Notes: generated by a model from the sequence alone, not told the origin. DNA of 64,000 nucleotides from Escherichia coli (GCF_024298765.1 NZ_CP101210.1), one strand, 5' to 3'; positions 2,258-5,572 are shown, counted from the stretch's first letter. Made by a program: numbers and translations.

Positions 2258-3157
2258 TTAACGCAACAGTGGACAATCTGGTGGTAATCGACAACGCAAC
2301 GCTGCCGGAAGTATTTCAATATGAAAATTTTGCCCACTCAACGGTTCGCCATCAAGATTAAAGGTGATGTCGTGTGGTGCCTGAATATCAAACCACGACG
2401 AAGCGCCTTCGATAATATTCGGGTTATCTTCGTCAGATTTTAAGGTTGATACGAGAGCCGGAAGTATTTCATCGCCGGTAAAAATGCGCAGTTGCAGCAA
2501 GCCATCGTTAATTAACGCGTTCGGACACAATTGCTGACCGCCACCGGCCTGACGCCCGTTACCAATACCAATGACCAGGGCGTCACCTTGCCAGTGAAAG
2601 TTTTCACCGCGGATTTCACAACGGTCCGGTTGCAGAGTATCCATACGCATTAAGCCATGAATGATGTAAGAGACGCTACCCAGCGCGGCTTTTAATTTTT
2701 CCGGCGTTTCTGTGGTAATACGCGTCCCAAATCCGCCTGTCGCCATATTAATAAAACAGGTTTGTTTGTTGACCTGCGCCATATCTATCGCAATGGCGTC
2801 ACCGGCAATTGCCAGTTTCAGCGCCTTATCCAGTGCCTCAGGAATCCCTACACTGGTGGCAAAATCATTGGCGGTTCCTAATGGCAAAATTCCCAGCGCG
2901 GGTATGTCATCCCCCTCACACTGAATCAACGCCGTAGAAACTTCATTAATGGTGCCATCGCCACCACCGGCAATCACCGTTGCGACGCCCAACTTCCGGG
3001 CCTCCTCTACATATCGTGCGGCATCGCCTTTCTCCCAGGTGACCCGCACATGGATCGTCATTCCTTCCTCACGCAACAGCATAATTGCTTCGCGCAAGGG
3101 TAGATTGTCAGTACTTTTGCCATTAAGAATCAGTAAGCTGGCGGGAAATTCTGCCAT
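2258..3157 (-). CDS. yegS: lipid kinase YegS (diacylglycerol kinase catalytic domain family)
   Basis: 299 aa; GGDGT motif ([13 protein letters not shown]); matches recalled YegS sequence. Confidence 0.9.
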
Positions 3158-3562
3158 GATCGTATGTGCCTTTATGATTGGTCTGTAGATAGTGTAGAGC
3201 AGAAAACAAAAGGTGGAGTCAGAACAGGATGAAAGTCGGAGGATAAAAAGTCAGTTCAAGTATGGAGGATTCAGTGGTTACCACCAGGAGCTTGCAATGG
3301 GGACAGCGAATACTAACGGCTGCCACCGATAAATTTCAAAAAAGAGCATATACCTAATATTCAACTAAACAGTGGCATCTTCAATATAATATATTAAAGC
3401 CCCCATGGAGTTACCCTGAAGGGCCTCAATGTCCGTAATTCCTACTTATGTAGGAAATGTTGTACAGAACATTTATTATAATCCTATTCAATTATAATAA
3501 TCATGCCATTATTATATTTAAACACTAGAGAGTGTCGTTGGTATTTAATGGGGGAAGGTGAG

Positions 3563-3880
3563 ATGAAAAAGATAGCTGCTATATCATTAATTAGTATTTT
3601 TATTATGTCTGGTTGTGCTGTGCATAATGATGAGACAAGTATCGGTAAATTTGGTCTTGCATATAAAAGTAATATTCAGCGTAAACTTGATAACCAATAC
3701 TACACCGAAGCCGAAGCTTCTTTAGCCAGGGGTAGAATATCTGGTGCAGAAAATATAGTAAAAAATGATGCAACTCATTTCTGTGTTACTCAGGGCAAAA
3801 AAATGCAAATAGTTGAGCTGAAGACAGAAGGTGTAGGATTACATGGTGTCGCTCGTCTGACATTCAAATGTGGAGAGTGA
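3563..3880 (+). CDS. yegR: small lipoprotein YegR (105 aa)
   Basis: Internal ATG at 3563 gives MKKIAAISLISIFIMSGC signal peptide with lipobox; AT-rich; the ORF-track start at 3503 is an upstream extension. Confidence 0.75.
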   Translation: MKKIAAISLISIFIMSGCAVHNDETSIGKFGLAYKSNIQRKLDNQYYTEAEASLARGRISGAENIVKNDATHFCVTQGKKMQIVELKTEGVGLHGVARLTFKCGE

Positions 3881-4037
3881 GAATATTTTTTGGTAAGCGT
3901 CAAATATGCGCGTTCTGGCTGTGCGTAGCCGGAACCTGTGGGAGCACGATGCCGATAAGTGAAAGGCATCGTGCTATGAAGGAGGATTCTATCGATGTGG
4001 TCAATGGAAGACGGTTACCAGAGATAGGGCTTATGCA

Positions 4038-4073
4038 TAAAAAAATAAGCCCGTGTAAGGGAGATTACACAGG
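4038..4073 (-). terminator. putative Rho-independent terminator downstream of yegQ
   Basis: Inverted repeat ccgtgtaa...ttacacagg (4050-4073) followed on the minus strand by a T-rich run (plus strand aaaaaaataag). Confidence 0.4.
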
Positions 4074-4210
4074 CTAAGGAGGTGGTTCCTGGTACAGCTA
4101 GCATTTTATGGGTTATGTTTTTCAGCGAAACGGATGATAACCTTAATAAATGCAGCTGTATGTGATCGGTTTCTAAGAATTTTCCATCCGGGAAAAATAA
4201 TCGAAATTAA

Positions 4211-5572
4211 TCACTTACCGTGTGGGTTACGCGTGGTTTCCCCGGAGAAATTACGCATCAGCAGAGCGTAATTGAGCTCAAGATCCTGCGGGACCGGGAG
4301 CCACACAGTATAACCATCGCCTGGTGCGACCGGCATCGCTTCACCTTTGGCGTTTTCCATGTGCTCAAGGGTAAAGTTAATGTTGCCTTGCGGCGTCATC
4401 AGCTCAAGGCTGTCGCCAACGGAGAATTTATTTTTCACCGCTACCGCCGCGAGGTCCCCCTTGCGCTCACCGGTAAACTCACCAACAAACTGCTGGCGGT
4501 CAGAAACTGAATAACCGTATTCGTAGTTCTGATAATCGTCGTGAGTATGACGACGCAGGAAACCTTCGGTATAGCCACGATGCGCCAGACCTTCCAGAGT
4601 TTCCAGCAGGCTGGTATCGAACGGTTTGCCCGCAGCGGCGTCATCGATAGCTTTACGGTAAACCTGTGCGGTGCGTGCGCAATAGTAGAAAGATTTAGTA
4701 CGGCCTTCGATTTTCAGCGAATGCACGCCCATTTTGGTCAGGCGTTCTACATGGGCGATGGCGCGCAGATCTTTCGAGTTCATGATGTAAGTGCCGTGCT
4801 CATCTTCAAACGCGGTCATATACTCGCCCGGACGCTGGGCTTCTTCGATCATAAACACTTTGTCGGTTGGCGCGCCGATACCCAGCGTCGGCTCAACATT
4901 TTGCACCGGAATCGGCTCGTACTTGTGTACGATGTTGCCAACGTCATCTTCTTTCCCTTCCTGGACGTTGTACTCCCAGCGGCAGGCGTTGGTGCAGGTA
5001 CCCTGGTTCGGATCGCGCTTGTTGATATAGCCAGAGAGCAGGCAGCGACCGGAGTAGGCCATGCACAGTGCGCCGTGAACGAAGATCTCGATCTCCATAT
5101 CCGGCACCTGATTGCGGATCTCTTCAATCTCTTCCAGCGACAGCTCGCGAGAGAGGATCACGCGGGTCAGGCCCATTTGCTGCCAGAATTTCACCGTCGC
5201 CCAGTTTACGGCGTTAGCCTGCACCGAGAGGTGGATCGGCATTTCAGGGAAGTGCTCACGCACCAGCATAATCAGCCCTGGATCGGACATAATCAGCGCA
5301 TCCGGCCCCATTTCCACCACCGGTTTCAGGTCACGGATAAAGGTTTTCAGCTTGGCGTTGTGCGGTGCAATGTTGACCACGACATAAAACTTTTTCCCCA
5401 GCGCGTGGGCTTCATTGATGCCGAGCTGAAGATTTTCGTGGTTGAATTCGTTGTTGCGCACACGCAGGGAGTAACGCGGCTGGCCCGCATAAACAGCATC
5501 TGCGCCATAAGCGAAAGCGTAACGCATATTTTTCAGCGTTCCCGCCGGGGAAAGGAGTTCCGGTTTAAACAT
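4211..5572 (-). CDS. yegQ: peptidase U32 family protein YegQ
   Basis: 453 aa ORF; matches recalled YegQ (collagenase-like U32 peptidase family). Confidence 0.85.
   Translation of the reverse strand: MFKPELLSPAGTLKNMRYAFAYGADAVYAGQPRYSLRVRNNEFNHENLQLGINEAHALGKKFYVVVNIAPHNAKLKTFIRDLKPVVEMGPDALIMSDPGLIMLVREHFPEMPIHLSVQANAVNWATVKFWQQMGLTRVILSRELSLEEIEEIRNQVPDMEIEIFVHGALCMAYSGRCLLSGYINKRDPNQGTCTNACRWEYNVQEGKEDDVGNIVHKYEPIPVQNVEPTLGIGAPTDKVFMIEEAQRPGEYMTAFEDEHGTYIMNSKDLRAIAHVERLTKMGVHSLKIEGRTKSFYYCARTAQVYRKAIDDAAAGKPFDTSLLETLEGLAHRGYTEGFLRRHTHDDYQNYEYGYSVSDRQQFVGEFTGERKGDLAAVAVKNKFSVGDSLELMTPQGNINFTLEHMENAKGEAMPVAPGDGYTVWLPVPQDLELNYALLMRNFSGETTRNPHGK

Follow-up and report, generated by a model that had tools for sequence, protein, structure and literature searches.

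An unoccupied P2 attachment site in the cyaR terminator of Escherichia coli, and the adjoining yegR island as a probable scar of an earlier P2-type integration there

The present analysis concerns the region between yegS and trhP (yegQ) in a 64,000-nt stretch of an Escherichia coli chromosome (GCF_024298765.1 NZ_CP101210.1; "the window" below refers to this whole stretch), and in particular the gene yegR, the small RNA (sRNA) gene cyaR and the attachment (att) site of phage P2 that lie there. Gene assignments were based on NCBIfam matches and on the RefSeq annotation of E. coli chromosomes 99–100% identical to the window. On these grounds yegS occupies 2258–3157 on the minus strand and yegR 3563–3880 on the plus strand, with an alternative open reading frame (ORF) start at 3503, and trhP, the conserved neighbour upstream of cyaR, occupies 4211–5572 on the minus strand (NF011996, 876 bits). 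The names yegR and yegQ had already been given in a first-pass annotation made from the sequence alone, together with a 330-bp spacer between the two genes, and both agree with our assignments, which place the spacer at 3881–4210. The same annotation had described the yegR region as strongly AT-rich compared with its neighbours, and base composition bears this out: GC content is 0.362 in yegR, 0.371 in 3272–3562 and 0.388 over 3239–4039, against 0.498 in yegS, 0.543 in trhP and 0.517 in the window as a whole, and about 1.2–1.3% of segments of the same length in the 64 kb are equally AT-rich. AT-richness immediately upstream of yegR is likewise real, but the length of ~340 bp assigned to it has to be corrected, since the yegS–yegR spacer measures 405 bp and its AT-rich part ~290 bp.

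The spacer between yegR and trhP contains cyaR (ryeE), at 4040–4128 on the minus strand, with an Rfam match covering 4043–4128 and a likely start at ~4126. The match to the RF00112 covariance model is full length (1–85 of 85) and scores 100.7 bits compared with a gathering score of 47 (E 1.4e-20). A hairpin with its stem at 4048–4075 (hairpin 2) reads on the minus strand as 11 pairs followed by UAUUUUUUUA, the U tract corresponding to the A run at 4039–4045 of the plus strand, and it was the only terminator-like site reported by a terminator scan of 3100–4300. Hairpin 2 is the Rho-independent terminator of cyaR, and the P2 core lies inside it. Previously this element had been listed as a second spacer hairpin with a T tract, at 4038–4073; the strong hairpin stands, with the T tract on the minus strand, but the sRNA gene had been missed, and with it the fact that the hairpin is the cyaR terminator and the att core the 3′ end of an RNA gene. 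RefSeq/PGAP places no feature under the cyaR match in the complete E. coli genomes listed, leaving the sRNA gene invisible in standard annotation.

CyaR is an experimentally studied, CRP-dependent sRNA (PMC3333887, PMC9765468). Within the 82-bp gap between trhP and cyaR there is a candidate CRP-like site, TTAGAAACCGATCACA, at 4161–4176 on the minus strand, with one consensus half-site (TCACA), a second half-site matching at 3 of 5 positions and its centre ~42 nt upstream of the cyaR start; its position near −42 fits the known control of cyaR by CRP (PMC3333887). Among the ~115 enterobacterial loci listed, nearly all have trhP at ~140 nt from the cyaR reference point, the terminator loop AAGGGAGATT is invariant, and the terminator stem shows compensatory changes (e.g. 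CCCGTGTAA/TTACACAGG, CCTGCGTAA/TTACGCAGG and CCAGCTCAA/TTGAGCTGG). The 85-nt body, anti-Shine–Dalgarno seed included, shows strong conservation between genera, and the DNA on either side of it diverges. With its full-length match, terminator, trhP directly upstream, candidate CRP-like element and CCUCCUU-containing seed, the gene is an ordinary E. coli cyaR allele, in which no difference from CyaR as described in RF00112 was detected. In the E. coli lineages represented by matches H26–H30, a C-to-T change in the att core turns a G·U pair of the CyaR terminator into A-U; the same lineages (L003, strain THO-003, ~2496–2665) carry ~170 bp of extra AT-rich DNA right after the yegR stop codon, at window 3886/3887.

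The P2 att core, the 27-mer AAAAAATAAGCCCGTGTAAGGGAGATT, occurs once in the window, at 4040–4066 in plus-strand orientation, where a search of 3880–4210 had been proposed. It is intact and unoccupied, and identical at 27 of 27 positions to the annotated attP of the P2 genome (AF063097, 24356–24382). Read along the plus strand, it takes in the A/U tract, then one arm of the terminator stem (its 5′ half in this direction) and the loop, and stops a few bases into the opposite arm. That the 3′ end of cyaR doubles as the P2 att core is a direct consequence of these coordinates. In a lysogen the core copy supplied by the phage restores the cyaR terminator at attR, the sole change being a U tract of 6 instead of 7. 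The overlap has reportedly been remarked on in the CyaR literature, but among the accessible texts we found no statement tying cyaR to the P2 att site.

Genomes of other E. coli show this core in use. In strain 23CRST025 a P2-like prophage is bounded by attL and attR that both hold the 27-mer, with int adjoining yegR and ogrK adjoining trhP, and other E. coli with complete P2-like prophages have the same 27-mer at both ends and at the same position; where genomes are split at the locus, the breaks fall at window 4040 or 4066. Occupancy was surveyed across 5,426 complete genomes of E. coli. With the core at the middle of a 161-bp query, the match was contiguous in 4,207 of these (78%) and broke at the first core base in the rest, and ~900 genomes break at window 4066; comparison of the two surveys gives an estimate of ~300 genomes with short remnants of the K-12 type and ~900 (about one sixth) with larger inserts. 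When the whole spacer was searched against phage databases, true phage genomes matched the 27-bp core and nothing else, and the other matches, set aside, were records with host flanks or chance matches to Vibrio phages.

K-12 had been suggested to carry a cryptic P2-like remnant at this position that is absent from the present DNA, and alignment upholds both halves of the suggestion. Derivatives of K-12 match the window in two pieces, with a partial "phage late control D" gene and ogrK between them in the same spacer, and the boundary falls after window 4057, where they have 629 extra bp (the 3′ part of gene D, ogrK, the P arm and a second core). Their left core copy ends after ...CCCGTGTA and is joined to the 3′ part of gene D, after which follow ogrK, the P arm and a complete right core. 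To judge from its sequence, then, the yegR–trhP spacer is the known P2 attachment site, here an unoccupied and apparently usable attB. The inference of a possibly empty site was a sound one, supported by an uninterrupted core at which prophages sit in other E. coli; as discussed below, it holds for present-day prophages and less well for past ones. The site is classically named locI and is the preferred site of P2. Both locI and the K-12 remnant were reportedly described in 1992 by Barreiro and Haggard-Ljungquist in the Journal of Bacteriology (174:4086). As at locI, the core in the window is a 27-mer that matches attP throughout, and P2-like prophages integrated there have int towards yegR and ogr towards trhP. 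Derivatives of K-12 differ in carrying D′-ogrK-attR at the core, which strains like the one analyzed lack, and there is no difference in the core itself.

The comparison with other species extends this picture to the yegR side of the core. Outgroups were drawn from the cyaR loci listed (~115 enterobacterial loci for gene order, 120 loci of other species for the tblastn search described below). The distance from the yegS ATG to the cyaR reference point is 106–200 nt in at least 49 loci, compared with 915 nt in the window. Loci with the short arrangement include E. whittamii, Escherichia sp. E1V33 and the divergent "E. coli" E69 (117–119 nt) and, among the loci listed, Enterobacter, Klebsiella, Kosakonia, Cedecea, Atlantibacter and Citrobacter. 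In three Escherichia lineages apart from E. coli, and in dozens of genera, the gap between yegS and the cyaR terminator is ~85 bp. A motif, GTCAGAACAGGATGAAAG, adjoins the core in many genera, and in the island-free Escherichia the flank abuts the cyaR terminator directly. In alignments with three loci (L069, L105 and L109), homology to the window runs to ~3237–3238 and resumes at ~4037–4040, and the segment 3158–3238 can be assigned to the ancestral yegS-proximal flank, that is, the B side of the original attachment site. Some 800 bp (3239–4039), absent from E. whittamii, E1V33, E69 and at least 46 further loci, have therefore been inserted in E. coli exactly against the core. The AT-rich island had earlier been listed as an oddity separate from the attachment site; its AT-richness holds, but it is an insertion at the same core.

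Both ends of this island carry features that resemble the arms and cores of an integrated P2-type element. At its left end, 3245–3271 on the plus strand, is a degenerate core copy, AAAAAGTCAGTTCAAGTATGGAGGATT, which matches the P2 core at 18 of 27 positions (19 of 27 in some E. coli), has the same orientation as 4040–4066 and may represent the core of a relic attL. Neither strand of the 64 kb holds any further core match of at least 18/27, and within the first 20 offsets it was equalled in 7 of 20,000 shuffles. The island is in this way bounded by direct core repeats, one decayed and one perfect (27/27). The left copy starts 88 nt from the yegS ATG; the true core of the island-free locus L069 starts 86 nt from it. 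Adjoining the copy, 35 nt at 3272–3306 (plus strand) appear to be a vestige of the P2 P′ side. In an anchored alignment to the attL P′ of E. albertii they score 10, which was matched by 4 of 20,000 shuffles and by none of 1,729 control positions in the window; against P2 itself, in a same-offset test, the signal is weaker (87 of 20,000 shuffles).

At the right end, 3989–4039 on the plus strand, lies what appears to be a decayed P2-type P arm, containing an intact arm-type Int repeat, TGTGGTCA, at 3995–4002, a degenerate second repeat and the remnant of an IHF stretch; the arm-site consensus for P2 Int repeats is tgTGGaCa (PMC3448106). Local alignment begins at the first base of the annotated P2 "Int P arm" site, with a score reached by none of 2000 and none of 200 shuffles. 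The lineage of the window has a 12-nt deletion within this relic. The 66-nt arm of Ecol_545, which has kept the 12 extra nt, aligns end to end with P2 at a score of 18, compared with −6.5 ± 3.8 for shuffles (0 of 3000), and in the same anchored test the copy in the window was equalled in 4 of 3000 shuffles, the flanks of island-free Escherichia, used as controls, giving no significant score. Immediately to the left of the relic P arm, at 3978–3987, the window has AAGGAGGATT where most E. coli lineages have AAGGGAGATT; this 10-mer equals the final 10 nt of the att core and is also complementary to the loop of the CyaR terminator. The rough estimate for a chance occurrence of this third partial core is ~0.03 when all core 10-mers are allowed for, and it may reflect nested integration or chance. 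We dropped it as evidence because no simple history places a core fragment on that side of the P arm.

The closest parallel is provided by E. albertii NBRC 107761 (locus L010, 4930–8400), where cyaR and yegS are separated by a 3.4-kb P2-type remnant. This remnant has an attL (25/27) followed by P′ at one end and a P arm followed by attR at the other, is without int or ogr, and carries cdtB (NF011787, E 4e-109) between ORFs that correspond in size and place to cdtA and cdtC. It resembles the E. coli island in its yegS–cyaR position, in its core repeats and in having P′ on the left and the P arm on the right; in both, int, ogr and the structural genes have been lost and a non-phage-like gene has been kept. 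The two differ in size (0.8 kb in E. coli, 3.4 kb in E. albertii), in the state of the left end (18/27 as opposed to 25/27), and in that yegR is transcribed towards cyaR, unlike the E. albertii cargo, which points away from it. A further difference is that yegR is uncharacterised and fixed in E. coli.

Considered together, these patterns are best explained by an empty P2 site in the cyaR terminator beside a yegR island left behind by an earlier P2-type element at this core, a reading to which we would give a probability of roughly 0.8. The gene cyaR runs on the minus strand from ~4126 to 4040, directly downstream of trhP, and ends in hairpin 2; in such a history an older P2-type element would have integrated into the core between the yegS flank and cyaR. 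The P2 integrase would swap strands within the core, such that the phage's own core copy yields an intact cyaR at attR. Subsequently the phage-like interior would have been lost, with yegR, its upstream region and its 3′ hairpin remaining. The start of the island would be marked by the decayed core copy and the P′-like stretch, placed where the core lies in island-free genomes, and its end by the decayed P arm set against the intact core. Being part of cyaR, the right-hand core alone would have stayed perfect. The earlier description of the site as empty would accordingly have to be qualified: with respect to present-day prophages it is empty, but the yegR island would be an earlier insertion at the same core with decayed attL and attR features.

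Several observations weigh against this history. The left core copy is no better than 18/27, and an unanchored local alignment of the left end of the island with P2 P′ was not significant (127 of 1000 shuffles). The flank statistics are derived from mononucleotide shuffles of short segments, with hypotheses framed after the sequence had been viewed. Neither tblastn nor alignment gave any P2 Int or Ogr signal in the island, and no recognisable phage gene is left in it. Distant relatives of YegR were found in two contexts, among transposases in Enterobacter sp. BIDMC 29 and alone near mug on a contig of a metagenomic enterobacterium, and neither context is P2-like or beside cyaR. YegR does match a PHROG family (phrog_21109, E 4e-71), which we did not accept as a sign of phage origin, as the family probably comes from prophage records with host flanks. 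One such record is ON470606 (vB_EcoM-720R8; L005, 1–2850), deposited as a phage, in which host gatR, yegS and yegR lie beyond its attL; the inclusion of host flank in deposited records of this kind is probably why YegR has a PHROG family of its own. The case for a function of hairpin 1, described below, turns on a single informative substitution. Finally, the outgroup sample is without E. fergusonii and Salmonella, which bears on the timing of the insertion.

Some of these points would fit an alternative in which the attB is pristine and the yegR island arrived separately, through illegitimate recombination or with another mobile element, its att-like ends being due to chance or convergence. 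An island without phage genes, relatives of YegR in non-phage contexts, a left core copy of 18/27 and a P′ similarity that is not significant in free alignment speak for such an origin. It would not account for three independent flank features that stand in the right order, orientation and spacing, each of them rare under shuffling, nor for the near-identical distances from the yegS ATG of the left copy (88 nt) and of the true core in island-free genomes (86 nt). An insertion ending exactly at the first core base, and an E. albertii P2 remnant with the same architecture in the same place, would be further coincidences, and we consider a separate origin improbable.

Alternatively, the island could be ancestral and lost elsewhere, the short yegS–cyaR arrangement having been produced by deletion, e.g. 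through excision between attL and attR. Direct core repeats would permit precise excision of this kind, and just three island-free Escherichia lineages other than E. coli were sampled. Loss would nevertheless have to explain a short arrangement with the same flank motif in at least 49 loci across many genera, and a YegR distribution essentially limited to E. coli and Shigella. We regard it as very improbable, and even so the island would still be an integrated element, with its timing alone shifted. The idea that hairpin 2 is a mere terminator of trhP, with no separate sRNA gene, has in its favour that the scan of 3100–4300 found no terminator-like site of trhP's own before hairpin 2, where read-through would end, but it can be set aside almost entirely in view of a full-length CyaR model match that scores over twice the gathering threshold, a candidate CRP-like site near −42 relative to the expected start, an 85-nt body conserved across genera between divergent flanks and the published study of CyaR as a CRP-dependent sRNA (PMC3333887, PMC9765468), the two roles being in any case compatible.

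A bolder extension of the relic history may be entertained, which we think unlikely. In this form the bacterial side of the P2 site would be a fossil P arm with an intact TGTGGTCA ~45 nt from the core, today's attB would be the old attR, yegR would be a fixed phage moron and the cyaR terminator would be a recurrent landing pad. If that were true and P2 Int still bound the relic arm, the arm could help explain the preference of P2 for this site over secondary sites, and it could alter excision and re-integration. Different lineages would then each have gained genes of their own at the landing pad, yegR in E. coli and cdtABC in E. albertii, with Enterobacter and Citrobacter holding other inserts.

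Analogues of the island occur in other genera. In Enterobacter sichuanensis (L116) an 864-bp insert lies to the left of the cyaR core and is bounded by a 21/27 core copy, and P2-type prophage arms stand directly against the core in E. albertii, Citrobacter and Enterobacter, the core being in each case the variant belonging to that host. Inserts of ~550 bp are also present between yegS and cyaR at three loci from other genera (L051, L107 and L115). The short inserts suggest repeated use of the cyaR terminator as a landing site, with small scars left behind. Elements that enter the 3′ ends of small RNA genes are known from tRNA genes (186-type integrases), from ssrA (Fels-2/SopE-phi) and from the sdsR locus in Salmonella (PMC3448106, PMC3333887). 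At those genes, as at the P2 site, the core overlaps a 3′ stem-loop, the phage copy restores the gene and successive insertions or remnants accumulate; the target in the P2 case is the terminator of an Hfq-type sRNA rather than a tRNA-like structure. P2-type integrases have been described as integrating "between other genes" (PMC3448106), which for P2 itself overlooks cyaR.

Much of this is covered by existing knowledge, which includes the P2 att site, the position of its core within the cyaR terminator, the remnant in K-12 and cyaR itself. As far as could be determined, the relic nature of the yegR island and the presence of a phage-derived arm on the "bacterial" side of the site are apparently undescribed. 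The relic history would give a concrete origin to an uncharacterised, E. coli-specific orphan gene, a modest addition, and the "bacterial arm" used in studies of P2 integration would hold phage-derived Int-site DNA. Repeated landing at an sRNA 3′ end, with genes specific to a lineage left in place, would be a new instance of a familiar process, in which integrases reuse the 3′ ends of RNA genes and prophages decay to cargo-bearing scars. Current understanding is not overturned; an sRNA gene absent from the annotation explains hairpin 2.

The gene at the centre of the island encodes a predicted lipoprotein of 105 aa with a signal peptide ending in the lipobox IMSGC, and is named "protein YegR" or "lipoprotein YegR" in RefSeq. 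It is fixed across E. coli, and its homologues fall into 81 clusters that are almost all from E. coli or Shigella. No match was found for YegR (PF27694) in the copy of Pfam searched, and among the 120 cyaR loci from other species tblastn gave none. As the cdtABC example of E. albertii suggests, yegR is probably the surviving cargo of a vanished phage, later arrival being the alternative.

Downstream of yegR, a hairpin with an 11-bp perfect stem had been reported at 3943–3975, and it is present as described: on the plus strand the arms of hairpin 1, 3943–3953 and 3965–3975, are complementary at 11 of 11 positions around an 11-nt loop. Its folding energy on the plus strand is −24.1 kcal/mol (z = −6.4), and none of 200 shuffles was as stable. 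It lacks the U tract of an intrinsic terminator, the next bases being AUGAAGGAGG on the plus and CCCACAGG on the minus strand, and it was not reported by the terminator scan. Among 7 divergent E. coli the stem shows one change, a C to T that keeps pairing, as G·U, in the plus-strand RNA only, and the loop and flanks show several. With low confidence, we suggest that hairpin 1 may be a structured 3′ end of the yegR transcript. Its position relative to the P arm is that of the ogr terminator in P2; no phage with the hairpin 1 sequence was found in the phage-database search.

Upstream of yegR, the AT-rich non-coding stretch at 3307–3562 (GC 0.37) is presumed to hold its promoter or regulatory region; it contains inverted repeats (I2 and I5) and promoter-like matches recognized from base sequence only. 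Nested AT-only inverted repeats, TTATTATAAT/ATTATAATAA and TTCAATTATAATAAT/ATTATTATATTTAAA, lie at 3473–3522, 40–90 bp upstream of the yegR start, and could be a binding site for a regulator or a nucleoid protein. A 69-aa ORF at 3868–4077 on the plus strand was rejected as a gene and treated as non-coding, having no family match and overlapping DNA that varies through indels. One search match in which yegS alone aligned (H40) was discarded as an unrelated, IS1-associated rearrangement.

There were also some minor observations on the genomes compared. The 23CRST025 prophage (L002, 27193–30247) carries a gene of the SIR2 family and a gene for an ATP-binding protein between its replication and portal genes, which looks like an anti-phage defence cargo pair, and the annotation marks its terminase and baseplate genes as truncated in part. 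The K-12 derivative compared (L001) has a laboratory deletion joining fragments of fbaB and yegS. The window also includes gatD and gatR, the latter an intact 259-aa ORF at 1397–2176; in K-12 MG1655 gatR is split by an insertion sequence.

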